DNA from: Eledone cirrhosa
Taxonomy: Eukaryota
Length of the DNA: 64,000 nucleotides
NCBI GenBank assembly: GCA_964016885.1
Contig: OZ024752.1
Coordinates: 49,724,001-49,788,000, forward strand
Reading direction: 5' to 3'
Made by a program: the position numbers and the translations under genes. Each line of letters opens with the position of its first letter. Positions within the stretch are counted from its first letter, which is position 1. Positions 5,065-61,293 of the stretch are shown piece after piece. A model generated the notes under the pieces. That model had not been told where the DNA came from and did not search any database. It worked only from the letters and a program-made list of their open reading frames with translations.

Positions 5065-5479
5065 CATGAATAATTAAATATCTTTTTGTCAGACATTGAA
5101 GTTATTCAGAATAAAATTCTGGTGTATTAAATTCCACAGAAAGACACTCGTTCTGAATTGTCTTCAGAATATGAGATTATATGAGAATATATGAGACTAT
5201 ATGAGACTATATGAGACTTGTAAATAAACCTTTGATTATATTTTCAGAATTTATTCTTTGTGTACGAAATCAACAATCTGGTTTTGATTTTCAGTTTACA
5301 AAGTATTTGCAGCTATTGAACTATTTTAGACGTAATGCTACTAGGTAGGATATTCATGAATGCCATTACTTCCCAATTAATTTCTTTTATAATTTCAGGA
5401 TTTTTATTTATTTTATCCTTTTCATATCTGTCTAACCCATGCTAGTATGGAAAATGGACGTTAAATGATGATGATCATG

Positions 5480-6525: not shown

Positions 6526-6835
6526 GTGTTTATATTGAAGTCTGTTTTGAATTAGGAAGGAAAATGTTAAGAATTTTTCTTTGGGATTTAGAATCTTCTG
6601 GAAGTTTTGTAGTAAAATTCTGCAAACCAGCTTGAATAATATGGAATCGAATGAAAGTCAGAGAAAGAGAAAACATATAGGGGTAAGGTTGGGTGCAGGG
6701 GGGGGGGGTCAATGTTGAAACAATAACAGACAGACAAAACGTCTATTAGCCTAGAAGCATTATTTTCTTAGGAATTTATAATAATTAAACTTCCAATAAA
6801 AGTTTAAAAAAAAAAAAAAAATTATAATAATAATA

Positions 6836-7496: not shown

Positions 7497-8854
7497 AGAG
7501 GAGAGACAGGTGAGTGGTAGAGAGAGGAGAGACAGGTGAGTGGTAGAGAGAGGAGAGACAGGTAAGTGGTAGAGAGAGGAGAGACAGGTGAGTGGTAGAG
7601 AGAGGAGAGACAGGTGAGTGGTAGAGAGAGGAGAGACAGGTAAGTGGTAGAGAGAGGAGAGACAGGTGAGTGGTAGAGAGAGGAGAGACAGGTGAGTGGT
7701 AGAGAGCGGAGAGACAGGTAAGTGGTAGAGAGAGGAGAGACAGGTGAGTGGTAGAGAGAGGAGAGACAGGTGAGTGGTAGAGAGAGGAGAGACAGGTGAG
7801 TGGTAGAGAGCGGAGAGACAGGTGAGTGGTAGAGAGAGGAGAGACAGGTGAGTGGTAGAGAGAGGAGAGACAGGTAAGTGGTAGAGAGCGGAGAGACAGG
7901 TGAGTGGTAGAGAGAGGAGAGACAGGTGAGTGGTAGAGAGAGGAGAGACAGGTGAGTGGTAGAGAGAGGAGAGACAGGTGAGTGGTAGAGAGCGGAGAGA
8001 CAGGTGAGTGGTAGAGAGAGGAGAGACAGGTAAGTGGTAGAGAGAGGAGAGACAGGTGAGTGGTAGAGAGCGGAGAGACAGGTGAGTGGTAGAGAGAGGA
8101 GAGACAGGTGAGTGGTAGAGAGAGGAGAGACAGGTGAGTGGTAGAGAGCGGAGAGACAGGTAAGTGGTAGAGAGAGGAGAGACAGGTGAGTGGTAGAGAG
8201 AGGAGAGACAGGTGAGTGGTAGAGAGCGGAGAGACAGGTAAGTGGTAGAGAGAGGAGAGACAGGTGAGTGGTAGAGAGCGGAGAGACAGGTAAGTGGTAG
8301 AGAGAGGAGAGACAGGTAAGTGGTAGAGAGAGGAGAGACAGGTGAGTGGTAGAGAGAGGAGAGACAGGTGAGTGGTAGAGAGAGGAGAGACAGGTGAGTG
8401 GTAGAGAGAGGAGAGACAGGTAAGTGGTAGAGAGAGGAGAGACAGGTGAGTGGTAGAGAGAGGAGAGACAGGTGAGTGGTAGAGAGAGGAGAGACAGGTG
8501 AGTGGTAGAGAGCGGAGAGACAGGTAAGTGGTAGAGAGAGGAGAGACAGGTGAGTGGTAGAGAGCGGAGAGACAGGTAAGTGGTAGAGAGAGGAGAGACA
8601 GGTGAGTGGTAGAGAGAGGAGAGACAGGTGAGTGGTAGAGAGAGGAGAGACAGGTGAGTGGTAGAGAGCGGAGAGACAGGTAAGTGGTAGAGAGAGGAGA
8701 GACAGGTGAGTGGTAGAGAGCGGAGAGACAGGTAAGTGGTAGAGAGAGGAGAGACAGGTGAGTGGTAGAGAGAGGAGAGACAGGTAAGTGGTAGAGAGAG
8801 GAGAGACAGGTGAGTGGTAGAGAGCGGAGAGACAGGTGAGTGGTAGAGAGAGAG
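7497..8854. repeat. 26-bp minisatellite, 52 copies (GAGAGMGGAGAGACAGGTRAGTGGTA)
   Basis: ACAGG at 7506 and 7532 gives period 26. Only two positions vary. Confidence 0.95.
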
Positions 8855-10805: not shown

Positions 10806-11109
10806 ACACACAAAAGGTAATAATAAGGGTATTTCCAGCACTTGGTAGTATGCCTGATGACTAAATTGAGAAGCAAGGGCCATTGGATTGTTTATTGTAT
10901 TTGATTGTCAGAGTTGATTGTCAGAGTTGATTGTTGTTGTTGTTGTTGTCAGTGGTTTTGATTGTTGTTATGTTGAGAGTCAAAGTCATTGATTATAAAG
11001 TTACATTAGACTGCTGTTCTTTCTGGCAATTCTAGCAATGTCTTTTATTTCTTACCTCCATCATGGAAACCCTACAACAATTTTCTAAGAAGGATTATTA
11101 CCCCTTTTT

Positions 11110-11760
11110 TCATTACCATATTTCTAATGAAATATACTACCTATGTCTTTAACCCTTTCATTACCATATTTCTAATGAAATATACTACCTATGTCATTAA
11201 CTCTTTCATTACCATATTTCTAATGAAATATACTACCTATGTCATTAACTCTTTCATTACCATATTTCTAATGAAATATACTACCTATGTCGTTAACTCT
11301 TTCATTACCATATTTCTAATGAAATATACTACCTATGTCATTAACTCTTTCATTACCATATTTCTAATGAAATATACTACCTATGTCTTTAACCCTTTCA
11401 TTACCATATTTCTAATGAAATAAACTACCTATGTCGTTAACTCTTTCATTACCATATTTTTATTGAAATATACTACCTATGTCTTTAACCCTTTCATTAC
11501 CATATTTCTAATGAAATAAACTACCTATGTCGTTAACTCTTTCATTACCATATTTCTAATGAAATATACTACCTATGTCATTAACTCTTTCATTACCATA
11601 TTTCTAATGAAATATACTACCTATGTCATTAACTCTTTCATTACCATATTTCTAATGAAATACAATGCTTATGTCATTAACTCTTTCATTACCATATTTC
11701 TAATGAAATACAATGCTTATGTCATTAACTCTTTCATTACTATATTTCTAATGAAATATG
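11110..11760. repeat. 48-bp minisatellite, ~13 copies
   Basis: 16-aa periodicity in the ORF track (MKYTTYVINSFITIFL). The unit contains TTAACCCTTT/TTAACTCTTT. Confidence 0.95.
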
Positions 11761-11859: not shown

Positions 11860-12352
11860 CTGCGTCAGTTATTAACTGTCGAGACACTGCATCCTTTAAA
11901 ACCTCCATGGAACAAACTCCCTGCATCAGTTGTTAACTGTCGAGACACTGCATCCTTTAAAACCTCCATGCTTCCTGAGATCACCAAGACGACACCTAAT
12001 ATTCCCCCTCCATACACACGCACACATGTATATCATGACTCATACACTGTTCACTTCCCTGACATTTGTATATTATTCTATGTAGGCACGGTGGATTGGC
12101 AGTATCGGTAGAGGGTCGGACGCCATGCTTTGACGCATAGAGTTACGGCCCTTGCCATTCTGAGTTCAAATCCCACCGAGGTTAACTTTGCCTTTCATGC
12201 TTACGAGGTCGATAGAATAAAGTACCAGTAATGCACTGGGGTAATTGCTGGCCTTGTGCCAAAAGTAGAAACAATTATTCTATGTATTATACATGTACCT
12301 TTGATGAGTTGTAGTGCACCTGAGCACTGTACACAATGATTTCATTATTATC
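11860..12352 (+). mobile_element. CR1-like LINE 3' end interrupted by a SINE
   Basis: Homologous to 37975-38230, with a short internal duplication at the 5' end. Confidence 0.8.
12085..12273 (+). mobile_element. Full-length SINE family 1 with a 13-bp target-site duplication
   Basis: ATTATTCTATGTA at 12072-12084 and 12274-12286; tRNA-like A/B boxes. Confidence 0.9.
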
Positions 12353-12357
12353 ATCAA

Positions 12358-12480
12358 ATCTGAGCTCAAATTCCGCCGAGGTTGACTTTACCTTTCATCC
12401 TTACGGGGTCGATAAAATAAAGTACCAGTAATGCACTGGGGTAATTGCTGGCCTTGTGCCTAAAGTAGAAACAATTATTA
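12358..12480 (+). mobile_element. 5'-truncated SINE family 1
   Basis: B-box through (ATT) tail. Confidence 0.85.
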
Positions 12481-15840: not shown

Positions 15841-16200
15841 CATCATCATCATTTTACGTCCACTTTTCCCTGCTTGCAAGGGTGGGACGGGTGCTATTCA
15901 GCACAGCATCTCTCCACTTATCACGCTCCTTCGTCATCTCCTCCGTGAGCTTCAGCAATCTGAGGTCTGCTCTCACCACCTCCGCCCATGTTTTTCGTGG
16001 TCTACCTCTACCACGTCTTCCTTCAACTGGCATTTCTTGGCACTTCTTCACCCATTAGTCATCCTCCATGTGCATCACATGTCCATACCATCGCAGTCTC
16101 CTCTCCTCTCCCGCACACAACAATTTATCCCTCTCAGACACAAGTTTCTCTCTCAACACATCCATGCTCGGTCATTCACGCACGTTGACATTCCACATCC
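15841..16200 (-). mobile_element. RTE-clade LINE 3' fragment
   Basis: Peptide KKCQEMPVEGRRGRGRPRKTWAEVVRADL...DRDKWR-like C-terminus, preceded by WYGHVM-like coding, with a (GAT)n tail. Shorter copies lie at 15289-15410 and 19142-19265. Confidence 0.85.
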
Positions 16201-16254
16201 ATAAACATTTTACTTCCATAAACAGCTGCAACACTATAATTATTATTATTATTA

Positions 16255-17694: not shown

Positions 17695-18112
17695 CACAGT
17701 GGATTGGCAGTGTTGGTCGAGCATCGGACAATATGCTTTGTGGTCCTTTATGGTCTGAGTTCAAATCCCGCCAAGGTTAACTTTGCCTTTCATCCTTACA
17801 GGGTCAATAAAATAAAGCACCAGTAACATACTGGGGTCGAATTAATTGACTTACCCCTCCCCCCAAATTACTCGCCTTGTGGCTATACTAGAAATCATTA
17901 TTACTATTATAGGGCAGTGGATTGGCAAAATCGATAGAGCGTTGGACAACATGCTTTGCAGCATAGAGTTATGGCCCTTTACGTTCTGTGTTCAAATCCC
18001 GCCAAGGTTAACTTTGTCTTTCATCCTTACGGGGTCGATAAAGATAAAATAAAGTAGCAGTAATGCACTGGGAAATTGCTAGCCTTGTGCCAAATGTAGA
18101 AACAATTATTAT
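17695..18112 (+). mobile_element. Two tandem diverged SINE family 1 copies
   Basis: Two head/B-box/central-domain repeats. The first has a longer 3' variant (GGGGTCGAATTAATTGACTTACCCC). Confidence 0.8.
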
Positions 18113-24287: not shown

Positions 24288-24649
24288 TCCTGTGTAAAAT
24301 CGGGGATAACCGCAGTAAGTAAGGTACTCAATACATTTGTAGAGTGTAAATATCATGTCTAATATAGGAATATTAAGCCAAAATAATCCACCATCAATAT
24401 GGTATGGGGGAGAGGGGTTCTAACTACAGCCCTTCAATTATACCACGAAATGACTGGCACTAGTGGGAATTAAAATAAAAATTTACTAAATTCACTAAAA
24501 TTTTTCTAGCGAATTTTTTTGTTTGCTCAGTCAAGAAAATAACAGCCTTGACAGCCTGTACAGCAACTGACCAATGAGAGAGTTTCTAAATGGTCACATG
24601 ACATGCTAGAAATAGCATTTAAATCTCACTCCATTCCTACCATTACCAC

Positions 24650-27600
24650 GACAATGACCACCACCACATACACTGCATACATACCACTACCATCACCTCC
24701 ACCACCACCACATACCACTACCATCACCTCCTCCACCACCACATACACTGCATACATACCACTACCATCACCTCCTCCACCCCCACATACCACTACCATC
24801 ACCTCCTCCACCACCACATACACTGCATACATACCACTACCATCACCTCCTCCACCACCACATACCACTACCATCACCTCCTCCACCACCACATACACTG
24901 CATACATACCACTACCATCACCTCCACCACATACCACTACCATCACCTCCACCACCACCACATACCACTACCATCACCTCCACCACCACCACATACACTG
25001 CATACATACCACTACCATCACCACCAGCCCCACATACCACTACCATCACCTCCACCACCACATACCACTACCATCACCTCCACCACCACATACCACCACC
25101 ATCACCTCCTCCACCACCACATACCACTACCATCACCTCCTCCACCACATACCACTACCATCACCTCCACCACCACCACATACCACCACCATCACCTCCA
25201 CCACCCCCACATACCACTACCATCACCTCCTCCACCACATACCACTACCATCACCTCCACCACCACATACCACTACCATCACCTCCACCACCACATACCA
25301 CCACCATCACCTCCTCCACCACCACATACCACTACCATCACCTCCTCCACCACCACATACCACTACCATCACCTCCTCCACCACCACATACCACTACCAT
25401 CACCTCCTCCACCACATACCACTACCATCACCACCACCACCACATACCACTACCATCACCTCCTCCACCACCACATACCACTACCATCACCTCCTCCACC
25501 CCCACATACCACTACCATCACCTCCTCCACCACCACATACCACTACCATCACCTCCTCCACCACCACATACCACTACCATCACCTCCTCCACCACCACAT
25601 ACCACTACCACCACCATCACCTCCTCCACCACCACATACCACTACCATCACCTCCTCCACCACATACCACTACCATCACCTCCACCACCACATACCACTA
25701 CCATCACCTCCTCCACCACCACATACCACTACCATCACCTCACCACCACCACATACCACCACCATCACCTCCTCCACCACCACATACCACTACCATCACC
25801 TCCTCCACCACATACCACCACCATCACCTCCTCCACCACCACATACCACTACCATCACCTCCACCACCACATACCACCACCATCACCTCCTCCACCACCA
25901 CATACCACTACCATCACCTCCTCCACCACCACATACCACTACCATCACCTCCTCCACCACCACATACCACTACCATCACCTCCTCCACCACCACATACCA
26001 CTACCATCACCTCCACCACCACGATACCACTACCATCACCTCCACCACCACCACATACCACTACCATCACCTCCTCCACCACCACATACCACTACCATCA
26101 CTCCACCACCACACATACCACTACCATCACCTCCACCACCCCACATACCACTACCATCACCTCCTCCACCACCACATACCATCACCTCCCCACCACATAC
26201 CACTACATCACCTCCACCACCCCACATACCACTACCATCACCTCCACCACCCCCACATACCACTACCATCACCTCCACCACATACCACTACCATCACCTC
26301 CACCACCACATACCACTACCATCACCTCCACCACCACCACATACCACTACCATCACCTCCTCCACCACCACATACCATCACCTCCACCACCACATACCAC
26401 TACCATCACCTCCACCACCCCCACATACCACTACCATCACCTCCACCACCCCACATACCACTACCATCACCTCCACCACATACCACTACCATCACCTCCA
26501 CCACCACATACCACTACCATCACCTCCACCACCACCACATACCACTACCATCACCTCCACCACCCCCACATACCACTACCATCACCTCCTCCACCACCAC
26601 ATACCACTACCATCACCTCCACCACCACCACATACACTACCATCACCTCCTCCACCACCACATACCACTACCATCACCTCCTCCACCACCACATACCACT
26701 ACCATCACCTCCACCACCACCACATACCACTACCATCACCTCCTCCACCCCACATACCACTACCATCACCTCCTCCACACCACATACCACTACCATCACC
26801 TCCTCCACCACCACATACCACTACCATCACCTCCTCCACCACCACATACCACTACCATCACCTCCTCCACCACCACATACCACTACCATCACCTCCACCA
26901 CACCACATACCACTACCATCACCTCCTCCACCACCACATACCACTACCATCACCTCCTCCACCACCACATACCACTACCATCACCTCCTCCACACCACAT
27001 ACCACTACAATCACCTCCACCACCCCCACATACCACTACCATCACCTCCTCCACCACCACATACCACTACCATCACCTCCACCACCACCACATACCACTA
27101 CCATCACCTCCTCCACCACCACATACCACTACCATCACCTCCACCACCCCCACATACCACTACCATCACCTCCACCACATACCACTACCATCACCTCCTC
27201 CACCACCACATACCACTACCATCACTCCACCACCCCCACATACCACTACCATCACCTCCACCACCCCACATACCACTACCATCACCTCCACCACCCCCAC
27301 ATACCATTACCTCCACCACCCATACCACTACCATCACCACCACCACCACATACCACTACCATCACCTCCACACCCATACCACTACCATCACCACCACCAC
27401 CACATACCACTACCATCACCTCCACCACCCCCACATACCACTACCATCACCACCACCACCACATACCACTACCATCACCTCCACCACCCCCCACATACCA
27501 CTCCATCACCCACCACCACATACCACTACCATCACCTCCTCCACCACCACATACCACTACATCACCTCCACCCCCCACATACCACCTACCATCACCTCCA

Positions 27601-28640
27601 CCACCACATACCACTACCATCACCTCCTCCACCACCACATACCACTACCATCACCTCCTCCACCACCACATACCACTACCATCACCTCCTCCACCACCAC
27701 ATACCACTACCATCACCTCCACCACCACATACCACTACCACCACCTCCACCACCACATACCACTACCATCACCTCCACCACCACATACCACTACCATCAC
27801 CTCCTCCACCACCACATACCCTACCATCACCTCCTCCACCACCACATACCACTACCATCACAACTCCACCACCACATACCACTACCATCACCTCCACCAC
27901 CCCCACATACCACTACCATCACCTCCACCACCCCCACATACCACTACCATCACCTCCTCCACCCCCACATACCACTACCATCACCTCCACCACCCCCACA
28001 TACCACTACCATCACCTCCACCACCCCCACATACCACTACCATCACCTCCACCACCCCCACATACACTACCATCACCTCCACCACCCCCACATACCACTA
28101 CCATCACCTCCACCACCCCCACATACCACTACCATCACCTCCACCACCCCCACATACCACTACCATCACCTCCTCCACCACCACATACCACTACCATCAC
28201 CTCCACCACCACATACCACTACCATCACCTCCTCCACCACCACATACCACTACCATCACCTCCACCACCACATACCACTACCATCACCTCCTCCACCACC
28301 ACATACCACTACCATCACCTCCACCCCCACATACCACTACCACCACCTCCACCACCACATACCACTACCATCACCTCCACCACCACCACATACCACTACC
28401 ATCACCTCCACCACCCCCACATACCACTACCATCACCTCCTCCACCCCCACATACCACTACCATCACCTCCTCCACCACCACATACCACTACCACCACCT
28501 CCTCCACCACCACCACATACCACTACCACCACCTCCTCCACCACCACCACATACCACTACCACCACCTCCTCCACCACCACCACATACCACTACCACCAC
28601 CTCCTCCACCACCACCACATACCACTACCACCACCACCAC
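24650..28640. repeat. ~4-kb C/A-rich satellite with a ~25-31-bp variable unit (CATACCACTACCATCACCTCCTCCACCACCA)
   Basis: Direct inspection. It is almost G-free on the + strand, which explains the 1359-aa ORF. Confidence 0.95.
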
Positions 28641-35549: not shown

Positions 35550-36320
35550 ATCCTCAGAATGAAAGGCAGACTGTATGATGCGTGTATCCGAACAGCGATG
35601 TTGCATGGTAGTGAGACCTGGGCACTGAAGGTGGAAGACTTACGTAGATTAGAGAGAAACGAAGCCTGCATGCTCCGATGGATGTGTAACAGTAATATAC
35701 GTGAACGACAAAGCATAAATGAATTGAGAGAAAGACTGAGCATAAGAGGAATCAAATGCTGTGTGCAGGAGAGGCGGTTGCGCTGGTATGGACATGTGAT
35801 GCGTATGAAGGATGACAGCTGCATAAAAAGGTGCAGAGCACTAGAAGTTGATGGAAACCGCGGAGTGGGGAGACCCAAGATGACCTGGGATGAGGTGATA
35901 AAAGCCGACCTTACCCAACTACACCTCTCAAAGACAATGACACACGACCGTGACTTCTGGCGTCACGCAGTAATACAGAGTACCCGACCTCCCATGGGTA
36001 CATGCTGAAGCATATAAACAATATGCCCCCACACACCCCCACCGCAAGGTGGTCGTGGAGGTGCCACGGCAAAAAAGCACGCAGCCCACACTGTAAAGTG
36101 GACGTGTAGGCGCCACGAAAAAGCACCCAGCACTCACTGTAAATGAGGTTGGTGTTAGGAAGGGCATCCAGCTGTAGAAATCAAGCCAGATCAGATCCTG
36201 TATGAGCAAGGCATGGTCAGCCGACCAGACACTGCACACAACAGGACAACCCGTCTAACCCATGCTAGCGTGGAAGAACGGACGTAAAACGGTGATGATG
36301 ATGATGATGATGATGATGAT
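35550..36320 (+). mobile_element. 5'-truncated RTE-clade LINE: ORF C-terminus, 3' UTR and (GAT)n tail
   Basis: 149-aa frame KGRLYDACIRTAMLHGSETW..RLERNEACMLRWMC..RRLRWYGHVMRM..GRPKMTW..DRDFWR is the typical post-RT region of RTE elements. Confidence 0.9.
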
Positions 36321-38289: not shown

Positions 38290-39671
38290 CAGAGAGAGTG
38301 AGAGAGAGAGAATTATAAACAGGTAATCAAGTTTACGAAACTTGAGTACCTGTTTATGTCAGTTGTAATTTTTTATACTAAACTCGTCCTATGGACTAAG
38401 TGCTCTTACTCTTGGACATTTCCACTTAACTTTTACTTCAGTATATATATATATGAAAGGGCATCCAGCCGTAGAAAACCAGCCAGACAGTCCTATACGA
38501 GCAAGACAACCAATCTTGCCCCAAGTGGGAAACCTCCCGTCCAAACCCATGCAAGCGTGGAAGATGGACGTTAAACGATGATGATGATGATGATATGAAT
38601 ATTGTTACGACTAGGGGCAAAGAAGGCAGTTGCTCCCCTTGTCCAACCATTAAATCCAGCCCTGATCTAGGGTCGATCTCATTGTGTGAGAGCAATAGTA
38701 AAAGTTGTCTACCATAACCTTGGCTTTACTAATGCTGATATTGCAAATGTGTGTATTTGCAGACTCTTCCAACCTACACTATCATTGAAGAATAGATAGG
38801 AAATAAAGAGTAAGGAAGAAGAAAAAGGAATTTAAATAACAACATTTATGAAAATTTGGAAGAAAGAAAAAATGGTATCCGCTGCAACATTATTATTTAT
38901 TCCAACATTAGTTTACTTTGCCTTTCATCCTTCCGGAGTCGATAAAATAAAGTACCAGTAATGCACTAGGGTATTGCTGGCCTTGTGCCATAAGTAGAAA
39001 CAATTATTTATTCCAACATTTGACCAAATTGCTGGAAGCATTTTCAAGTTAGAAATTCAAAGTTTAGCAATTTTTGTTGGAAAAAAGTGAGAACTTAAAC
39101 AAGACACAAACACAAGCGCTCATACATACACACATATATATACACATACACACATATATATACACATACACACATATATATACACATACACACATACACA
39201 CATACATATGCTCATATACACATATATACGCTCATACACACATACATACACTCATACACACATACATATGTACATACACACATATATATGCACGTACACA
39301 CATACATATACACATACACACATACATATACACATACACACGTACTCATACACACATACATATGCACATATACACATACATATACACATACACATATATA
39401 TGTACATACACACATACATATACACATACACATACACACGTACTCATACACACATACATATGCTCATATACACATACACATGTATATACACACATACATA
39501 TGCACATAAACACATATATATATATACACACATACACACATACATATACACATACACACATACTCATACACACATACATATGTGCATACACACATACATA
39601 CATATGCACATATACAACTGCACTAACACAGCACCATCACAGCACACTGTATATTTACATATATACATAAT

Positions 39672-41909: not shown

Positions 41910-42332
41910 AAATCAAAAGATGGTTAAAAGAGTTCCATGTATTTTATGATCTGCTTTTCAAAAACAAATATCATCATGGGATGATATTTGCGTTCTCATC
42001 AGATAAAATAGCGAGACATGATATGAAGCATAAAAAACACTTGCGAGCAGTGAAGTGTTAAATCAACATTATATTATTTATACTCCAATCCTATAAACTG
42101 TTGAGTGCTACTTATCCGATATTTGCATTGCTTTATTGTGCTACAATAAAACTCACCTCCTACATTATATATATATTTTTTTACTCATCTTTTTCCATAT
42201 ATCTGAGGGTTCTAAACCCCACTATCAGGCTAAAATTTCTTTAGTCAAAAATACGGTGAAAGCTATTCTATTTCTAATTTCAAACTCACTCACTGTTTCA
42301 AAACATACTTACTTATATATATATATATATCA

Positions 42333-42984: not shown

Positions 42985-43168
42985 TACACAGACACACACA
43001 CATATATATGTACATATACACACATATATATATATACACATGCATACATATATATACATATATACACAGACATATACATATATATATATATACGTTATTC
43101 CGGGTTGAATCGGAGGTAACCACAGTAAGTAAGGTACTCAATACATAGCAGAGTATAAAAGTTTTAAT

Positions 43169-43217
43169 GATTCCTGATGATTTCTAATGAATGAAACAGT
43201 TCTAGTCCTGTAGAATC
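43169..43217 (+). ncRNA. Type I hammerhead ribozyme motif (family A, copy 2), inside element 43094-43232
   Basis: GATTC-CTGATGA-TTTCTAATGAAT-GAA-ACAG-TTCTAGTC-CTGT-A-GAATC. Confidence 0.75.
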
Positions 43218-43233
43218 TCATCTATATTAAAAC

Positions 43234-45065: not shown

Positions 45066-45869
45066 ATGGTTGCAAACTCTGCTAAGAGTATTGCAATCGC
45101 TTGTCAGGTTATAGAGTTTGGTGCACTTTTCGGCTACGGCCAGTCACACAAATCTGTAACAGACCCTGAACAAGCAATGCCTGTGCCTTGAAGGTGTTTT
45201 TAAGTGTGGGAAAGGCCTTGCACTCAACCAATCCCACTCTCTGAGCATCGCAAACACTACCCGAAAAGGAGAACTAGTCAACATCATCGGATGCTTCCGA
45301 AGCCAAGCGCAGGTTTTTTAAATTTTTTTTTATATATTTAAAGTATTAAAACCTTAAATCTATTTATTTAATTATAAATACGGAAAGTGCAGCGATAGAA
45401 GATAAATAAAACTTCAAAATAATCATAATATCCGACATTGTTTTGAGAATAATAGTGTAAAATTAATTATGACACCGGTTTAGGGATTTGATTTAACCCT
45501 TGACCTAACGCCGCCACGGTCATTTGATGTTCAGATTAAAAAGAATTGGGGAGTAAATTAATTGTTTTATTTATTTACTTATATGAAACAAGGAAGAAGA
45601 TGCCGGGACAGAAATTAAAAAATTTGCCGTCGTTAAAAAATTAAAATTCACCCATTACCCCTCCCATGATGCAACAGGGCAGGTAAATGATTTGACGATT
45701 TAGCGACATCAGTTCCTCAAATTTCACCGAGCCGAAATCTCAAGAACGATAACTCTGTCTTTACTTAATCGCAAAAATGGGTGCAAAAAAGTTTCAGTTG
45801 GGGACTTTTTTTTATTACGTATGATTTGTATGACAATTACTTAAAACACACCCACCCACTAACACATAT

Positions 45870-45953
<84 letters not shown>

Positions 45954-46070
45954 TATATATGTGTGTGTGTGTGTAAGAGAGCAGTGGCACTCCGTCGGTT
46001 GCGACGACAAGTATTTCTGTTTTTCCTACGAAATAAAAGTTGACACAATGTTTATAGTTGTTATTGTTGT

Positions 46071-46118
<48 letters not shown>

Positions 46119-46612
46119 CTGTTTCTACTTTAGGCACAAGGCCAGCAATTACCCAGTGCATTACTGGTACTTTATTTTATCGACCCCGTAAGGATGAAAG
46201 GCAAAGTCAACCTCGGCGTTATATATATATATATAACGGCGATGAATTAGTTTTGCGAGGTTTTTTATATGAAATCGTGTGTCGAAACAAATATTGTTAT
46301 ACTTGGGGAGGGTCATATTTGTGTAATATTGCCAGAATTAATAACAGAACACACTCACTGTTTGGTTGGTTTTCGCTTTTCGCTTCTATGTCTTTTATAT
46401 CGGTAATCTAATTTATTCGGTCCTCAATGTTGCCATTGACTGACCGGCGGTCAAAAATAATACAGATTCAATATAGACACAGTCAATGGCATTGAGGACC
46501 GAATAAATTAGATTACCGATATAAAAAACACAGAAGCGAAAAGCGAAAACCAACCAAACAATGAGTGTGTTCTGTTATTAATTCTGGCAATATTACACAA
46601 ATATGACCCTCC

Positions 46613-46649
<37 letters not shown>

Positions 46650-47231
46650 AAAATGTATGACCCCGACGGCAGAGCTCAAGCCGTTTCGACGGCTTCATAC
46701 ATTTTCCTATTACCCACTCTACTACCCTAAGTATTGAGTACTCTGGTGCGTTATGGTCCATCTGGTTCCTTACCACAACTCCTTCGTTATAAAATATTAT
46801 ATATTATTTATAATATAAATATTATATATAATATAAAATATTTTATATATATTATATATATATTATATATATTATATTATATATATTATATATTATATAT
46901 ATATATTATATATTAGATATATTAGATATTATAATTGAATTTTGCAAAGTTTTAAAACCAAACTGAAAATAAATTCCTATATATCTAAAACTATGTTTTC
47001 TTATATACAATAACAATAGACAGAACAACAACAACAACAACAACAACGATAACAATAACAACAATAAACATTGTGCTGTGAGTCAAATTTTATTTTTTTT
47101 GCATTTTTGTTTTTAAAATCCAAATTCAATAAACAGACCAGGATTTTTTCATTCTGAGGATTGAAAGCAAAATTTTTTGCTTTTAAGAAACCACTGGTAA
47201 ATGGAATAATTGTCTTATGTTGTTTATTACA

Positions 47232-47302
<71 letters not shown>

Positions 47303-47520
47303 GTAGATAAATCTACCAAAAGTTTACGGTAGTGTCCAATCCGTATGAAGAACTCAATGTAATCCAGATATCATGGAAAGAAAAGATGCATTCAAAAATC
47401 ACTTTCGGTGAAAGATAAACAGAATACAGAGTCAAGATAAAATATAAAAAAAATAATGAATAAAACAATTGATAAAATATTAAAAAAATAATGAATAAAA
47501 CAATTCATTATTTTTTTAAT

Positions 47521-47593
<73 letters not shown>

Positions 47594-48387
47594 GTGTGTG
47601 TGTGTGTTTTAAGTAATTGTCATACAAATCATACGTAATAATAAAATGTCCCCAACTGAAACTTTTTTGCACCCATTTTTGCGATTAAGTAAAGACGGAG
47701 TTATCGTTCTTGAGATTTCGGCTCGGTGAAATTTGAGGAACTGATGTCGCTAAATCGTCAAATCATTTACCTACCCTGTTGCATCATGGGAGGGGTAATG
47801 GATGAATTTTAATTTTTTAACGACCACAAATTTTTTAATTTCTTTCCCGGCATCTTCTTCCTTGTTTCATATAAGTAAATAAATAAACACAATTAATTTA
47901 CTCCCCAATTCTCTTTAATCTGAACATCAAATGACCGTGGAGGCGTCAGGTCAAGGGTTAAATCAAATCCCTAAACCGGTGTCATAATTAATTTTACACT
48001 ATTATTCTCAAAACAATGTCGGATATTATGATTATTTTGAAGTTTTATTTATCTTCTATCGCTGCACTTTCCGTATTTATAATTAAATAAATAGATTTAA
48101 GGTTTTAATACTTTAAATATAAAAAAAAAATAATAAAAACCTGCGCTTGGCTTCGGAAGCATCCGATGATGTTGACTAGTTCTCCTTTTCGGGTAGTGTT
48201 TGCGATGCTCAGAGAGTGGGATTGGTCGAGTGCAAGGACTTTCCCCACTTAAAAACACCTTCAAAGCACAGGCATTGCTTGTTCAGAGTCTGTTACAGTT
48301 TTGTGTGACTGGCCGTAGCCGAAAAGTGCACCAAACTCTATAACCTGACAAGCGATTGCAATACTCTTTAGCAGAGTTTGCAACCAT
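45066..48387. mobile_element. Foldback-like structure with ~780-bp inverted arms (45066-45851 and 47602-48387)
   Basis: ATGGTTGCAAACTCTGCTAA..GACAATTACTTAAAACACAC is mirrored by GTGTGTTTTAAGTAATTGTC..TTAGCAGAGTTTGCAACCAT, with scattered mismatches. Confidence 0.8.
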
Positions 48388-48736
48388 CATTTGATGTTCA
48401 GATTAAAGAGAATTGGGGGGTAAATTAATTGTTTTATTTATTTACTTATATGAAACAAGGAAGAAGATGCCGGGACAGAAATTAAAAAATATGCCGTCGT
48501 TAAAAAATTAAAATTCACCCATTACCCCTCCCATGATGCAACAGGGCAGGTAAATGATTTGACGATTTAGCGACATCAGTTCCTCAAATTTCACCGAGCC
48601 GAAATCTCAAGAACGATAACTCTGTCTTTACTTAATCGCAAAAATGGGTGCAAAAAAGTTTCAGTTGGGGACTTTTTTTTATTACGTATGATTTGTATGA
48701 CAATTACTTAAAACACACCCACCCACTAACACATAT

Positions 48737-48806
<70 letters not shown>

Positions 48807-48923
48807 TATATATGTGTGTGTGTGTGTAAGAGAGCAGTGGCACTCCGTCGGTTGCGACGACAAGTATTTCTGTTTTTCCTACGAAATAAAAGTTGACACA
48901 ATGTTTATAGTTGTTATTGTTGT

Positions 48924-48971
<48 letters not shown>

Positions 48972-49465
48972 CTGTTTCTACTTTAGGCACAAGGCCAGCA
49001 ATTACCCAGTGCATTACTGGTACTTTATTTTATCGACCCCGTAAGGATGAAAGGCAAAGTCAACCTCGGCGTTATATATATATATATAACGGCGATGAAT
49101 TAGTTTTGCGAGGTTTTTTATATGAAATCGTGTGTCGAAACAAATATTGTTATACTTGGGGAGGGTCATATTTGTGTAATATTGCCAGAATTAATAACAG
49201 AACACACTCACTGTTTGGTTGGTTTTCGCTTTTCGCTTCTATGTCTTTTATATCGGTAATCTAATTTATTCGGTCCTCAATGTTGCCATTGACTGACCGG
49301 CGGTCAAAAATAATACAGATTCAATATAGACACAGTCAATGGCATTGAGGACCGAATAAATTAGATTACCGATATAAAAAACACAGAAGCGAAAAGCGAA
49401 AACCAACCAAACAATGAGTGTGTTCTGTTATTAATTCTGGCAATATTACACAAATATGACCCTCC

Positions 49466-49502
<37 letters not shown>

Positions 49503-50084
49503 AAAATGTATGACCCCGACGGCAGAGCTCAAGCCGTTTCGACGGCTTCATACATTTTCCTATTACCCACTCTACTACCCTAAGTATTGAGTACTCTGGT
49601 GCGTTATGGTCCATCTGGTTCCTTACCACAACTCCTTCGTTATAAAATATTATATATTATTTATAATATAAATATTATATATAATATAAAATATTTTATA
49701 TATATTATATATATATTATATATATTATATTATATATATTATATATTATATATATATATTATATATTAGATATATTAGATATTATAATTGAATTTTGCAA
49801 AGTTTTAAAACCAAACTGAAAATAAATTCCTATATATCTAAAACTATGTTTTCTTATATACAATAACAATAGACAGAACAACAACAACAACAACAACAAC
49901 GATAACAATAACAACAATAAACATTGTGCTGTGAGTCAAATTTTATTTTTTTTGCATTTTTGTTTTTAAAATCCAAATTCAATAAACAGACCAGGATTTT
50001 TTCATTCTGAGGATTGAAAGCAAAATTTTTTGCTTTTAAGAAACCACTGGTAAATGGAATAATTGTCTTATGTTGTTTATTACA

Positions 50085-50161
<77 letters not shown>

Positions 50162-50379
50162 GTAGATAAATCTACCAAAAGTTTACGGTAGTGTCCAATC
50201 CGTATGAAGAACTCAATGTAATCCAGATATCATGGAAAGAAAAGATGCATTCAAAAATCACTTTCGGTGAAAGATAAACAGAATACAGAGTCAAGATAAA
50301 ATATAAAAAAAATAATGAATAAAACAATTGATAAAATATTAAAAAAATAATGAATAAAACAATTCATTATTTTTTTAAT

Positions 50380-50452
<73 letters not shown>

Positions 50453-51595
50453 GTGTGTGTGTGTGTTTTAAGTAATTGTCATACAAATCATACGTAATAA
50501 TAAAATGTCCCCAACTGAAACTTTTTTGCACCCATTTTTGCGATTAAGTAAAGACGGAGTTATCGTTCTTGAGATTTCGGCTCGGTGAAATTTGAGGAAC
50601 TGATGTCGCTAAATCGTCAAATCATTTACCTACCCTGTTGCATCATGGGAGGGGTAATGGATGAATTTTAATTTTTTAACGACCACAAATTTTTTAATTT
50701 CTTTCCCGGCATCTTCTTCCTTGTTTCATATAAGTAAATAAATAAACACAATTAATTTACTCCCCAATTCTCTTTAATCTGAACATCAAATGACCGTGGA
50801 GGCGTCAGGTCAAGGGTTAAATCAAATCCCTAAACCGGTGTCATAATTAATTTTACACTATTATTCTCAAAACAATGTCGGATATTATGATTATTTTGAA
50901 GTTTTATTTATCTTCTATCGCTGCACTTTCCGTATTTATAATTAAATAAATAGATTTAAGGTTTTAATACTTTAAATATAAAAAAAAAATAATAAAAACC
51001 TGCGCTTGGCTTCGGAAGCATCCGATGATGTTGACTAGTTCTCCTTTTCGGGTAGTGTTTGCGATGCTCAGAGAGTGGGATTGGTCGAGTGCAAGGACTT
51101 TCCCCACTTAAAAACACCTTCAAAGCACAGGCATTGCTTGTTCAGAGTCTGTTACAGTTTTGTGTGACTGGCCGTAGCCGAAAAGTGCACCAAACTCTAT
51201 AACCTGACAAGCGATTGCAATACTCTTTAGCAGAGTTTGCAACCATCATTTGATGTTCAGATTAAAGAGAATTGGGGGGTAAATTAATTGTTTTATTTAT
51301 TTACTTATATGAAACAAGGAAGAAGATGCCGGGACAGAAATTAAAAAATATGCCGTCGTTAAAAAATTAAAATTCACCCATTACCCCTCCCATGATGCAA
51401 CAGGGCAGGTAAATGATTTGACGATTTAGCGACATCAGTTCCTCAAATTTCACCGAGCCGAAATCTCAAGAACGATAACTCTGTCTTTACTTAATCGCAA
51501 AAATGGGTGCAAAAAAGTTTCAGTTGGGGACTTTTTTTTATTACGTATGATTTGTATGACAATTACTTAAAACACACCCACCCACTAACACATAT

Positions 51596-51665
<70 letters not shown>

Positions 51666-51782
51666 TATATATGTGTGTGTGTGTGTAAGAGAGCAGTGGC
51701 ACTCCGTCGGTTGCGACGACAAGTATTTCTGTTTTTCCTACGAAATAAAAGTTGACACAATGTTTATAGTTGTTATTGTTGT

Positions 51783-51830
<48 letters not shown>

Positions 51831-52324
51831 CTGTTTCTACTTTAGGCACAAGGCCAGCAATTACCCAGTGCATTACTGGTACTTTATTTTATCGACCCCG
51901 TAAGGATGAAAGGCAAAGTCAACCTCGGCGTTATATATATATATATAACGGCGATGAATTAGTTTTGCGAGGTTTTTTATATGAAATCGTGTGTCGAAAC
52001 AAATATTGTTATACTTGGGGAGGGTCATATTTGTGTAATATTGCCAGAATTAATAACAGAACACACTCACTGTTTGGTTGGTTTTCGCTTTTCGCTTCTA
52101 TGTCTTTTATATCGGTAATCTAATTTATTCGGTCCTCAATGTTGCCATTGACTGACCGGCGGTCAAAAATAATACAGATTCAATATAGACACAGTCAATG
52201 GCATTGAGGACCGAATAAATTAGATTACCGATATAAAAAACACAGAAGCGAAAAGCGAAAACCAACCAAACAATGAGTGTGTTCTGTTATTAATTCTGGC
52301 AATATTACACAAATATGACCCTCC

Positions 52325-52363
<39 letters not shown>

Positions 52364-52945
52364 AAAATGTATGACCCCGACGGCAGAGCTCAAGCCGTTT
52401 CGACGGCTTCATACATTTTCCTATTACCCACTCTACTACCCTAAGTATTGAGTACTCTGGTGCGTTATGGTCCATCTGGTTCCTTACCACAACTCCTTCG
52501 TTATAAAATATTATATATTATTTATAATATAAATATTATATATAATATAAAATATTTTATATATATTATATATATATTATATATATTATATTATATATAT
52601 TATATATTATATATATATATTATATATTAGATATATTAGATATTATAATTGAATTTTGCAAAGTTTTAAAACCAAACTGAAAATAAATTCCTATATATCT
52701 AAAACTATGTTTTCTTATATACAATAACAATAGACAGAACAACAACAACAACAACAACAACGATAACAATAACAACAATAAACATTGTGCTGTGAGTCAA
52801 ATTTTATTTTTTTTGCATTTTTGTTTTTAAAATCCAAATTCAATAAACAGACCAGGATTTTTTCATTCTGAGGATTGAAAGCAAAATTTTTTGCTTTTAA
52901 GAAACCACTGGTAAATGGAATAATTGTCTTATGTTGTTTATTACA

Positions 52946-53024
<79 letters not shown>

Positions 53025-53242
53025 GTAGATAAATCTACCAAAAGTTTACGGTAGTGTCCAATCCGTATGAAGAACTCAATGTAATCCAGATATCATGGAA
53101 AGAAAAGATGCATTCAAAAATCACTTTCGGTGAAAGATAAACAGAATACAGAGTCAAGATAAAATATAAAAAAAATAATGAATAAAACAATTGATAAAAT
53201 ATTAAAAAAATAATGAATAAAACAATTCATTATTTTTTTAAT

Positions 53243-53317
<75 letters not shown>

Positions 53318-54110
53318 GTGTGTGTGTGTGTTTTAAGTAATTGTCATACAAATCATACGTAATAATAAAATGTCCCCAACTGAAACTTTTTTGCACCCAT
53401 TTTTGCGATTAAGTAAAGACGGAGTTATCGTTCTTGAGATTTCGGCTCGGTGAAATTTGAGGAACTGATGTCGCTAAATCGTCAAATCATTTACCTACCC
53501 TGTTGCATCATGGGAGGGGTAATGGATGAATTTTAATTTTTTAACGACCACAAATTTTTTAATTTCTTTCCCGGCATCTTCTTCCTTGTTTCATATAAGT
53601 AAATAAATAAACACAATTAATTTACTCCCCAATTCTCTTTAATCTGAACATCAAATGACCGTGGAGGCGTCAGGTCAAGGGTTAAATCAAATCCCTAAAC
53701 CGGTGTCATAATTAATTTTACACTATTATTCTCAAAACAATGTCGGATATTATGATTATTTTGAAGTTTTATTTATCTTCTATCGCTGCACTTTCCGTAT
53801 TTATAATTAAATAAATAGATTTAAGGTTTTAATACTTTAAATATAAAAAAAAAATAATAAAAACCTGCGCTTGGCTTCGGAAGCATCCGATGATGTTGAC
53901 TAGTTCTCCTTTTCGGGTAGTGTTTGCGATGCTCAGAGAGTGGGATTGGTCGAGTGCAAGGACTTTCCCCACTTAAAAACACCTTCAAAGCACAGGCATT
54001 GCTTGTTCAGAGTCTGTTACAGTTTTGTGTGACTGGCCGTAGCCGAAAAGTGCACCAAACTCTATAACCTGACAAGCGATTGCAATACTCTTTAGCAGAG
54101 TTTGCAACCA
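45520..54110. repeat. Tandem triplication of a ~2.86-kb unit (45520-48386, 48387-51245, 51246-54110)
   Basis: Identical ORF-track peptides at 46058, 48911 and 51770. Units differ mainly in (TA)n length. Confidence 0.95.
46305..46614. repeat. Inner inverted repeat with ~135-bp arms and a 37-bp spacer (also in units 2 and 3)
   Basis: GGGGAGGGTCATATTTG..CCATTGACTG / CAGTCAATGG..CAAATATGACCCTCCCC. Confidence 0.9.
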
Positions 54111-55239
54111 TCATTTGATGTTCAGATTAAAGAGAATTGGGGGGTAAATTAATTGTTTTATTTATTTACTTATATGAAACAAGGAAGAAGATGCCGGGAC
54201 AGAAATTAAAAAATATGCCGTCGTTAAAAAATTAAAATTCACCCATTACCCCTCCCATGATGCAACAGGGCAGGTAAATGATTTGACGATTTAGCGACAT
54301 CAGATCCTCAAATTTCACCGTGCCGAAATCTCAAGAACGATAACTCTGTCTTTACTTAATCGCAAAATTGGGTGCAAAAAAGTCTCACTCAATACGGAAA
54401 GTTTTTTTTTTATGTATGACTCTGTATATAAATATAATTACTTACTTAACACCCACACACAATATATATACTCCGTCGGTTGCAACGATGAGTATTCCAG
54501 CTTTTCCTCAGAAATAAAATTTGACTCACAGCACAATGTTTATTGTTGTTATTGTTATCGTTATCGTTGTTGTTGTTGTTCTGTCTATTGTTATTGTTGT
54601 TATACATATAAGAAAACATAGTTTTAGATATATATAGGAATTTATTTAAAAGAATAAACCTTTCTGAAAGAATCGCGTATATAATATATATAATATAATA
54701 TAATATATATAATATAATTGTTTCTACTTTAGGCACAAGGCCTATTGATATATAATATATATATAATATATATATATAATATATATATAATATATATAAT
54801 ATATATATTATATATCAATTTATTTTATCTGACATCAATTTATTTTATCTGATGAGGACGTACTGAGGATATATATAGTAAAAAATTGAACGGTAAGAAA
54901 ACAGAGAGGTAGTACGAACAAAGGTTTATTAGTTTCACGCTCTTGAGGGTGGAGTGGTGGTGATATATATATATATAACGAAGGAGTTAACGCACCAGAG
55001 TACTCAATACTTAGGGTAGTAGAGTGGGTAATAAGAACATGTATGAAGCCGTCGAAACGGCTTGAGCTCTGCCGTCGGGGTCATACATTTTTGATGTCTG
55101 ACATACCTCAACTGTGCTGATGGTTCAATTCCAGTTTTGGCAGTTATTATATATTTTGCCTTTCATCCTTACGAGGTCGATAAAATAAAGTACCAGTAAT
55201 GCACTGGGTATTTACTGGCCTTGTACCTAAAGTAGAAAC

Positions 55240-55310
<71 letters not shown>

Positions 55311-55446
55311 TTTATTCAGGTTTGTGGTTCACCACTGTATAGAGCTGGTCTATTCCGTATGGTCAATCGTAATGTAGAGAGTACTCAACGTAAAGCAGTT
55401 CAACCGTCTTTGTTTTTGTAGTTGGTGGTGCTATTACGGAGTTAAA

Positions 55447-55566
55447 TATTATAATGAAATGACAGGAGGCTGGATTTGTGTAAATCCTTGAAAGGTTTAT
55501 ACTATGATCATAGTATAATAAACCTTTCAAGGATTTACACAAATCCAGCTCCTGTCATTTCATTAT

Positions 55567-55570
<4 letters not shown>
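55447..55570. repeat. Near-perfect loopless 124-bp palindrome centred on TGATCA
   Basis: The arms differ only by a 1-nt and a 3-nt indel. Confidence 0.9.
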
Positions 55571-55603
<33 letters not shown>

Positions 55604-55672
55604 TTATTCCGGGTTCAATCGGGGGTAACCACAGTAAGTAAGGTACTCAATACATTGCAGAGTATAAATGTT

Positions 55673-55747
55673 TTAATATTGAAAAGCTTCCTGATGATTT
55701 CTCACGAATGAAACAGTTCTAGTCCTGTAGAAGCCTTTCTATATTAA
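55673..55747 (+). ncRNA. Type I hammerhead ribozyme motif (family A, copy 3) with extended stem I, inside element 55603-55750
   Basis: TTAATATTGAAAAGCTTC-CTGATGA-TTTCTCACGAAT-GAA-ACAG-TTCTAGTC-CTGT-A-GAAGCCTTTCTATATTAA. Confidence 0.78.
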
Positions 55748-55933
55748 TATATATATATATATATATATAATAAATACAATATCGGAGAAAGCTTTTTAGC
55801 GATACTCCGGCCAAATTCCAACTCACTCAACAAACATTAGGAAATAAAGTGATTATATTCCCAATTATGTGTTCGGGGTGCTAACTAAAAGTATTGCGTG
55901 GAAAATTGGCTGTATTATTTCAAATGAGACATA

Positions 55934-55970
<37 letters not shown>

Positions 55971-56048
55971 CAACAATAACAGCAATACTTTTCTTAGGAA
56001 AAACAGAAATACTCGTCCTCGCAACCGACGAAGTGCCGCTGCTCTCTT

Positions 56049-56132
<84 letters not shown>

Positions 56133-57011
56133 ATATCTGTGTATGTGGGTGTGTGTGTGTTTTAAGTAATTGTCATACAAATCATACGTAATAAAATGTC
56201 CCCAACTGAAACTTTTTTGCACCCAATTTCGCGATTAAGTAAAGACAGAGTTATCGTTCTTGAGATTTCGGCACGGTGAAATTTGAGGAACTGATGTCGC
56301 TAAATCGTCAAATCATTTACCTGCCCTGTTGCATCGTGGGAGGGGTAATGGGTGAATTTTAATTTTTTAACGACGGCAAATTTTTTAATTTCTGTCCCGG
56401 CATCTTCTTCCTTGTTTCATATAAGTAAATAAATAAAACAATTAATTTACCCCTCAATTCTCTTTAATCTGAACATCAAATGACCGTGGCTGCGCGAGGC
56501 AAGAGTTACATTAAATCCCTAAACCGGTGTCATAATTAATTTTACACTATTATTCTGAAAACAATGTCGGATATTATGATTATTTTGAAGTTTTATTTAT
56601 CTTTTATCGCTGCACTTTCCGTATTTATAATTAAATAAATAGATTTAAGGTTTTAATACTTTAAATATATTAAACTTTCAGCAAATTCTCTGATAGCTGT
56701 ATACTGCCAGTAATATGTATAGTATATACTATATATAGTAAAAAGAAAAAGTATACATTTTGATTGCACCTTTTTGTTTCCAGTTATGTATTTTTTTAAA
56801 ATGCTGTTTATTCGTTATAAAAATCAACTCATAGTATTCTATATCTGGGTTGGCCCCCTTTATCTTCTGGCAACCAATATTTTTAGACCCAGTCCGCCAC
56901 TGCGTACATGTAAATACATAAATACATACATGCGTATGTACATATACATACACACATACATATGTAAATATGTACGTGCGTACATACATATGTACATACG
57001 TATGCACATAC

Positions 57012-57269
57012 ATATCAAAGATTAGCGAAAAAGAGAACATTTATGCAGAACTAATGAGAAATCTGCAGATACCCCACCCTGACTATACCGTCAGATTTAT
57101 ACCTGTGATTATTGGGGCACGAGGATATGTTAGTAACTGTCTCAATACAAATCTCGAGAAGCTGGGCTTCACAGGGACAGAAAGAACACAACTAGTTAGG
57201 AAATTACAAGTACAATCCAGTAATGGAACAGTAAAAGTATGTAAAACATTCCAAAAATTCTGGATCTAA
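57012..57269 (+). mobile_element. C-terminal fragment of a restriction-like-endonuclease non-LTR retrotransposon (R4/Dong-like)
   Basis: KISEKENIYAELMRNLQ..VRFIPVIIGARG..LEKLG..LQ fits the K..KY..L..P(V/I)(V/I)IG..G motif, and the frame ends into TAATAA. Clade assignment is inference. Confidence 0.65.
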
Positions 57270-60479: not shown

Positions 60480-60516
<37 letters not shown>

Positions 60517-61070
60517 GGCAGTATCGGTGGAAGGTTGGACGCCATGCTTTCCAGCATAGTTACGTCCCTTTACGATCTGAGTTCAAATCCCGCCGAGGTT
60601 GACTTTGCCTTTCATCCTTACGGGGTCGATAAAATAAAGTACCAGTAATGCACTGGGGGAAATTGCTGGCCTTGTGCCTAAAGTAGAAACAATTATTACA
60701 AGGGTGGTGAATTGGCAGTATCGGTAGAGGGTCGGACGCCATGCTTTGACGCATAGAGTTACGGCCCTTGCCATTCTGAGTTCAAATCCCGCCGAGGTTG
60801 ACTTTGCCTTTCATCCTTACGGGGTCGATAAAATAAAGTACCAGTAATACACTGGGATAATTGCTGGCCTTGTGCCAAATGATTACTATTGGCAGTATCG
60901 GTAGAGGGTCGGACGCCATGCTTTGTAGCATAGAGTTACGTCCCTTTACGATCTGAGTTCAAATTCCGCCGAGGTTAACTTTGCCTTTCATCCTTACGGG
61001 GTCGATAAAATAAAGTACCAGTAATGCACTGGGATAATTGCTGGCCTTGTGCCAAAAATAGAAATAGTTA
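60517..61070 (+). mobile_element. Three head-to-tail SINE family 1 copies
   Basis: Copies at about 60517-60695, 60703-60880 and 60888-61068 differ from each other at diagnostic sites. Confidence 0.9.
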
Positions 61071-61293
61071 TTACTATGATTGCTATTATTATTGTTGTTG
61101 TTATTATTATTGTTGTTGTTGTTGTTGTTTTCCAATTTTAGGTTTAGGATTCTTTTGTCTTAATTTTTTGTGTTTTTAGTAGTCGACGTCACTCCCTGTC
61201 CTTGTGAATTTGTGTGTATATATATGTATGTATGTATATGTATGTATGTATGTATACATATATACATATATATACATATATATATATGTATAC

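Follow-up and report, generated by a model that had tools for sequence, protein, structure and literature searches.

A nested inverted complex of repeat modules joined by TA microsatellites in Eledone cirrhosa

We analyzed a 64-kb stretch of Eledone cirrhosa DNA (contig OZ024752.1, positions 49,724,001 to 49,788,000; below, the window), in which positions 45066-56670 form a noncoding complex of ~11.6 kb: short repeat pieces, linked by TA microsatellites, make up two mirror-image units. In the explanation that we favor, and to which we give about an even chance, the complex is not itself a transposon and would have arisen in place when a TA-linked patchwork underwent nested inverted duplication, trimming, conversion, and a recent unequal crossover. 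The first-pass annotation had offered two origins, a sequence-capturing Foldback/Pack-type element or repeated local insertion of one element into TA tracts followed by rearrangement. Local build-up in TA tracts and later rearrangement gives the best fit, on the evidence of a colinear inverted second unit, a chimeric arm, and a mapped crossover; the four distinct arms, though, appear to stem from duplication and conversion and not from four independent insertions.

Architecture and common ancestry of the two units

Self-comparison of the window and a module-by-module search located eight copies of one arm sequence in the orientation + - + - + - + -, confirming the first-pass count of eight alternating arms of up to ~1 kb, four of them distinct. 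With the triplication described below collapsed, the four distinct arms are 96-98% identical (5-13 differences per ~273 positions; BLAST, E below 1e-120). Arms 1 and 2 agree in 760 of 783 columns, and arm 1 reaches ~1 kb when its microsatellite and inner module are counted. The collapsed locus measures 5881 bp and consists of E1 (45066-48387: arm 1, a 1760-bp interior, and arm 2) and E2, a truncated inverted paralogue (54111-56670: arm 3, a 1732-bp interior, and arm 4). The arm parts X, Y, Z, and W1 have no copy in the other 52 kb of the window, and the arm had no match among plasmid and phage sequences. The parts of the complex are as follows, with the strand where one is assigned.

45066-45846, plus: arm 1, complete (X 45066-45316, a T-rich joint, Y 45331-45519, Z 45520-45846)
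45070-45096: 11-bp hairpin in arm 1, read from the sequence
45847-46072, plus: CA/TA/TG microsatellite and inner arm modules W1 and partial W2
46118-46218, minus: 5'-truncated 3' end of a short interspersed nuclear element (SINE), (TA)n on both sides
46236-46614: module G and palindrome P1 (46305-46614; 126-bp ungapped arms, the right one ending at a TA tract)
46648-46763, minus: module A of E1, a hairpin containing just the second half of a hammerhead-like core (another, free copy at 728-836)
46967-47095, minus: W2-W3 block common to E2 (W2 identical at 49/49 positions)
47096-47524: modules H and J, in E1 only
47607-48387, minus: arm 2, complete, its outer end joined to an internal point of the following arm
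48387-51245, plus: second tandem unit (hybrid arm 48387-48713, plus; interior 1; arm 2 copy 50466-51246, minus)
51246-54110, plus: third tandem unit (hybrid arm 51246-51572, plus; interior 1; arm 2 copy 53331-54111, minus)
54111-54427, plus: arm 3, without X and Y
54714-54742, minus: 29-bp SINE 3' tip within an AT-only array
54825-55144: module B in two oppositely oriented halves (54825-54866 and 55091-55144), with module D (54878-54962) and module A (54988-55091, 98% identical to the E1 copy) between them
55155-55245, plus: 5'-truncated SINE 3' end running into (TA)n
55308-55570: module E and the spacerless palindrome P2 (55447-55570, ending at a TA tract)
55602-55746, plus: module C, 145 bp, TA-flanked, with a predicted type I hammerhead at 55686-55734
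55770-55937: module F, in E2 only
55968-56670, minus: W1, microsatellite, and arm 4 (56160-56670; Y and Z only, X absent)

We compared E2 with the reverse complement of E1 and found five blocks in the same order: arm (89%), W2-W3 and AT array (77%), module A (98%), SINE and TA tract (96%), and arm (91%). These colinear blocks argue for one ancestor remodeled by about six block losses or replacements (a count from the alignments) and not for two independent captures. Thus the interiors, which had been described as different but sharing module types, do differ, and what they share goes beyond types to orthologous pieces in mirrored order. In addition, module A of E1 and of E2 have in common an upstream 14-mer and a small fold-back that the free copy at 728-836 does not have. 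E1 does not contain E-P2-C-F, and the missing segment extends from one TA tract to another; it may represent a loss from E1 or a gain in E2.

The arms themselves show conflicting relationships. In part Z of the outer arm, all three informative sites group arm 1 with arm 2 and arm 3 with arm 4, whereas the inner parts pair otherwise, arm 1 with arm 4 (W1, 55/60) and arm 2 with arm 3 (W2, 49/49). This conflict points to an older fold-back whose outer arms were homogenized by conversion. Furthermore, arm 3 is 97.8% identical to arm 4 at 54111-54387 and then only 58-84% identical inward, and is, judged by its sequence, a chimera. What follows arm 2 is similar to the outer flank of arm 1 in inverted orientation; this weakly suggests that arm 2 formerly continued into the same flank and then joined arm 3 by a microhomology deletion, so that the joint would not be an element end. 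Assuming an octopus host and the rate given in PMC13282606 (a distance of 0.09 for 25 million years), the 3% divergence of the arms would correspond to roughly 4 million years.

Triplication and hybrid arms

A unit-start marker recurs at 45523, 48390, 51249, and 54114, which gives units of 2867, 2859, and 2865 bp. From the equivalent of 45713 on, the three units are identical over 2384 bases each once (TA)n runs are collapsed; TA tract length varies among units in 4 of 14 tracts. The only substitutions among the units lie at 45541, 45552, and 45624, where units 2 and 3 have the arm 3 allele, and from 45713 on these units carry the arm 1 allele. The allele switch therefore falls within 45625-45712, an 88-bp interval that is the longest identical tract of arms 1 and 3. 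With arm 3 alleles followed by arm 1 alleles, the arms of the repeated units are thus arm 3/arm 1 hybrids, which would match the prediction of unequal crossing-over between the direct arms 1 and 3. Nonallelic homologous recombination is known to produce tandem duplications with direct repeats flanking the unit and hybrid copies at the junctions; the mechanism would be the same here, with the difference that the unit itself holds a fold-back.

The triplication, taken alone, could instead be an assembly or amplification artifact, a loop through the 88-bp tract common to arms 1 and 3, and we consider this possible but on the doubtful side. Outside the hybrid segment there are no substitutions among the three units, and a join in the longest identical tract is equally expected from a graph loop. 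However, plain loop unrolling would not produce the length differences seen in 4/14 TA tracts, the window contains no N, and the inverted arms, being 2-5% apart, are not read chimeras. An artifact of this kind would be compatible with all the other readings, and the 5.9-kb inverted core would remain real.

TA tracts, cargo, and hammerhead modules

A (TA)n tract is its own reverse complement and can re-pair in either direction. In the complex, 11 of the 12 interior spacers between merged TA blocks are complex modules of 50-400 nt, compared with 26 of 71 outside (Fisher test, p = 0.0004, for a region picked post hoc and with such modules frequent outside too). The interiors are thus patchworks of modules separated by (TA)n, as first proposed, and, since module-type spacers are also frequent elsewhere in the window, the patchwork appears to be a denser form of something common in the genome.

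The favored history, local duplication and rearrangement, would comprise six steps, the order of which we infer. Small elements would first have inserted into TA tracts, each insertion creating two new tracts, and an old fold-back duplication would then have produced a unit, E0. This unit would have been duplicated in inverted orientation, with trimming at the join that removed X and Y from arm 3. Next, a DNA end in one TA tract may have re-paired with another tract in either direction, because (TA)n is its own reverse complement, and modules would thereby have been deleted, replaced, or inverted at this locus. Conversion would have held the outer arms 96-98% alike, and a crossover between the direct arms 1 and 3 would finally have generated the tandem units. 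We propose no host function.

Among the cargo, the SINE 3' end (13 outside copies) and modules A, B, and C have free copies in the window; no convincing source emerged there for modules G, P1, V, H, J, D, E, P2, and F. Of the 13 outside SINE copies, none ends 10 nt or less from a (TA)4+ tract and 11 retain the 5' end, so the SINE does not target TA. Both interior pieces, in contrast, are truncated and abut TA, and were therefore trimmed or moved secondarily. The SINE may belong to an octopod family. SINE head-to-tail dimers and a trimer lie at 60505-61075, 12095-12480, and 17703-18111. As for the palindromes, P1 folds far better than expected (z = -35.9), and the end of J is a 35-bp tandem duplication with a perfect 21-bp hairpin adjoining a TA tract. 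Hairpins scoring at least 21 number four in the collapsed complex (P1, P2, the J end, and one that is AT only) and five outside it (four microsatellite mixtures and a fifth in the module A cluster). A 20-bp hairpin also occurs near a TA tract at 38315-38357.

The type I hammerhead motif has three matches in the window (1131, 43174, and 55691) against 0.10 expected. The only complete one in the complex is that of module C (55686-55734, plus strand); module B is cut before the second core motif, and module A lacks the first. The cargo had been listed as SINE pieces, ribozyme elements, and palindromes, of which the SINE pieces and palindromes stand and the ribozymes reduce to module C. This module has a full, TA-flanked free copy at 43094-43229 and pieces at 1126-1256 and 24298-24351. 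Its predicted hammerhead comprises the core and three stems, with 34 of 36 cells paired in three copies and one compensatory change in stem I that does not exceed shuffled controls (176/500; three sequences cannot reach significance). In free folding of module C, the hammerhead did no better than shuffles (z = -0.57), so the prediction rests on motif and conservation. An Rfam search of the whole window gave no match at the gathering score, missing the module C hammerhead too, and the subthreshold matches, which we rejected, were microRNA and snoRNA models fitting hairpins and microsatellites; ARAGORN found no tRNA in the window. A decayed relative of the module B core lies at ~41990-42020.

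Modules A, B, and C also cluster within 650 bp at 616-1260, without any arm and in tandem and inverted pieces: a partial A tandem with a 22-bp inverted piece, an intact B whose hammerhead core reads on the minus strand, and C in two pieces, first its 3' half and then the 5' half in inverted orientation, an arrangement that is Penelope-like. The probability of such coclustering by chance is 0.003 if placement is uniform and 0.019 if modules are placed at TA blocks.

That A and C are scrambled here in the absence of an arm favors local rearrangement. Of 28 breakpoints listed by hand, 15 lie within 10 nt of a TA tract (8-18% expected), in a list that is partly circular, as many breakpoints were defined by TA tracts. 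Several observations weigh against this explanation, that circularity among them. The remaining 13 breakpoints, to which the three outer arm ends and the inner one of arm 3 belong, are off TA tracts, and TA tract density is nearly equal inside and outside the complex (3.6 versus 3.0 per kb). Arms 1 and 2 share an end point that adjoins a hairpin and coincides with the edge of a microsatellite, which is what an element terminus would look like. The arm 2/arm 3 microhomology is weak, the likeness past arm 2 being matched by 35 of 785 arm positions (4.5%) and by 8.6-10% in wider backgrounds. The clustering at 616-1260 suggests cargo traveling as a composite, the two interior SINE pieces probably represent one ancestral piece or event, and all copy-number evidence is drawn from the 64 kb of the window.

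Relation to mobile elements and significance

We next weighed readings in which mobile elements built the units, comparing published systems on the accessible portions of the papers cited. In one of these, which we regard as unlikely, E1 and E2 are copies of a mobile, nonautonomous, microsatellite-targeting element with long terminal inverted repeats (TIRs), Foldback- or Mutator-like, whose TA-bounded cargo was picked up or swapped in gap repair; a local hop would have made the two copies neighbors, and E2 would have been truncated by a deletion that stopped at the terminus. This would account for inverted arms of 781 bp and 97% identity flanking a variable noncoding middle, for the outer end that arms 1 and 2 share at a microsatellite edge, and for arms that are sisters within each unit. 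Galileo shows variable TIR length, chimeric copies, and conversion (PMC3573991), and microsatellite-targeted Mutator-like elements (MULEs) often lack a target-site duplication (TSD) (PMC5907723). However, the homology of two copies must stop somewhere, so an end shared by only two copies proves little, and two of the four arms, 3 and 4, lack the putative terminus. The absence of a transposase trace and of a TSD agrees with the first-pass annotation; the latter is a weak objection, since the original right flank of E1 is lost.

The Foldback/Pack reading proposed at first fared poorly in the tests that the window allowed. Long terminal inverted repeats are present in E1 (781 bp), with shorter and unequal arms in E2, and the noncoding middle is variable (1760 and 1732 bp). 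No tandem-repeat domain was found in the arm (TRF, score 30, 45066-45846), which also counts against the long-TIR element. Neither E1, whose right flank is lost, nor the whole complex gave a TSD of the Foldback size (7-10 bp), the latter having only a 4-nt AT match, and a Pack-MULE-type TSD of 8-11 bp was likewise not found, with the same reservation about the lost flank. No captured gene fragment was identified among the cargo, the identifiable part of which is mobile-element debris. At the curated cutoff, Pfam matched none of the 148 open reading frames (ORFs) searched out of 154 candidates (7 weak matches), a set that excluded ORFs shorter than 45 amino acids, low-complexity ORFs, and those inside repeated units. 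One arm frame gave two matches among 1.84 billion proteins, both to internally repeated proteins through summed weak stretches, and a second reached an Atlas score of 0.79; we judged the former to be chance and the latter to be at chance level. With no transposase, TSD, arm tandem domain, or captured gene, membership in the Foldback or Pack-MULE groups is thus not shown.

Other DNA elements were considered as well. Helentron HINEs (DINE-1-like; PMC4067079 and PMC7492417) are defined by a terminal stem-loop, a T-rich target, and subterminal inverted repeats of 11-15 bp near both ends. The arm has a hairpin at 45070-45096 and a T-rich X/Y joint, in two copies only; the subterminal repeats are absent from it, the best pair being 11/12 at 45143/45823, 77 bp from the end. 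Part of Z may resemble a DINE-1 motif. A Crypton was rejected, with no matching feature in the accessible portion of PMC3212892, and that portion, like that of PMC4758252, held nothing decisive for this complex. An enclosing transposon finds no support in the window, where the TIR-like end at 56889-56902 has no partner.

A further alternative, which we consider improbable, is that the units are Penelope-type retroinsertions, in which reverse transcription of a composite RNA into a TA tract would have left an inverted truncated copy alongside, the hammerhead modules being pLTR- or retrozyme-like pieces linked by template jumps. Penelope-like elements yield partial tandems and an adjacent inverted 5'-truncated copy, favor microsatellites, and carry hammerheads (PMC8557442), and the window has its excess of type I hammerheads, with one compensatory change, and two clusters of A, B, and C. 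Against this, the arm ends have no hammerhead core in or near them, and no reverse transcriptase or GIY-YIG ORF was found. An inverted copy made at insertion should match throughout, whereas the inner part of arm 3 is only 58-84% like arm 4, and both units retain distinct left and right inner parts, which would need a DNA-level copy. Compared with Penelope-like elements and nonlong-terminal-repeat retrozymes (PMC8557442, PMC7229834, bioRxiv 10.64898/2026.07.22.740005, and PMC11167929), modules A, B, and C are alike in the type I hammerhead with a weak helix II, the TA-flanked insertion, and the tandem and inverted pieces; unlike them, module C is a 145-bp monomer without a tandem array, and the arms have neither hammerhead nor ORF.

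The closest likeness for the patchwork is with the SaTar arrays of guayule and rice (PMC5907723), where unrelated short elements also stand end to end on (TA)n, often without a TSD, and internal deletions fuse neighbors. The microsatellite flanks are found here too, at 11/12 interior spacers. In contrast, SaTars are MULEs of 233-1900 bp that are intact, are defined by their TIRs, and never interrupt one another, whereas here palindromes are limited to P1 and P2, some modules are incomplete or divided (B is split and inverted, and the SINE pieces are truncated), retro-derived pieces are part of the cargo, and the array lies within nested kilobase inverted repeats of an animal genome. Tetris (PMC4079207) and Galileo (PMC3573991) resemble the complex in their long TIRs, variable noncoding middle, unequal or chimeric arms, conversion, and expansion by unequal crossover. 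They differ in having a tandem-repeat domain in the arm and a TSD (8-10 bp in Tetris, 7 bp in Galileo); the complex, moreover, has no known transposase partner and, within the window, no arm copy elsewhere.

The boldest alternative is that the complex is a dispersed animal Foldback-type element whose interior serves as an exchange platform, its (TA)n tracts capturing, inverting, and swapping SINE ends, hammerhead modules, and palindromes; we think this quite unlikely, if slightly less so than the Penelope-type origin. The literature searched, mostly outside subscription journals, yielded no case of TA-mediated cassette exchange in a Foldback-type element, only the analogues named above, and no paper with either of two sequence motifs.

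Several features lie outside the complex. The right flank (56671-56902) ends in the lone TIR-like motif and is apparently a truncated DNA transposon end. At 57033-57269 (plus strand), a C-terminal fragment without a Pfam match stands tail to tail with a SINE; its first Atlas match scored 0.96, in a cluster mostly of Eukaryota in which Mollusca are commonest, and it is presumably part of a restriction-endonuclease-type ORF of a long interspersed nuclear element (LINE). A LINE ORF fragment with 593 relatives, which we take to be RTE-like, lies at 35556-35966 (plus strand), and a similar piece occurs near 15963-16202 (minus strand). Minisatellite arrays at 4006-4516, 5478-6526, 7500-8830, 11108-11759, and 24660-28640 have periods of ~51, 79, 23, and 48 bp and include a multi-kb C-rich array, with strong strand skew.

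The locus would, if transcribed, produce long double-stranded RNA, as the first-pass annotation expected: on one RNA, arms 1 and 2 are predicted in silico to pair at 760 of 781 bases, with perfect runs of up to 174 bp. The pairing is thus a potential one, and no host exon was identified in the window. If local duplication and rearrangement is the right explanation, it shows cleanly how TA microsatellites together with short repeats remodel a single locus, and it offers a crossover confined to 88 bp and a length polymorphism open to testing; each ingredient is already known. The locus would matter more if the arm proved to be a dispersed element. Were the exchange-platform reading true, every copy would be a hairpin of kilobase size whose cargo cleaves itself, and this in a lineage where RNA editing is likely abundant.

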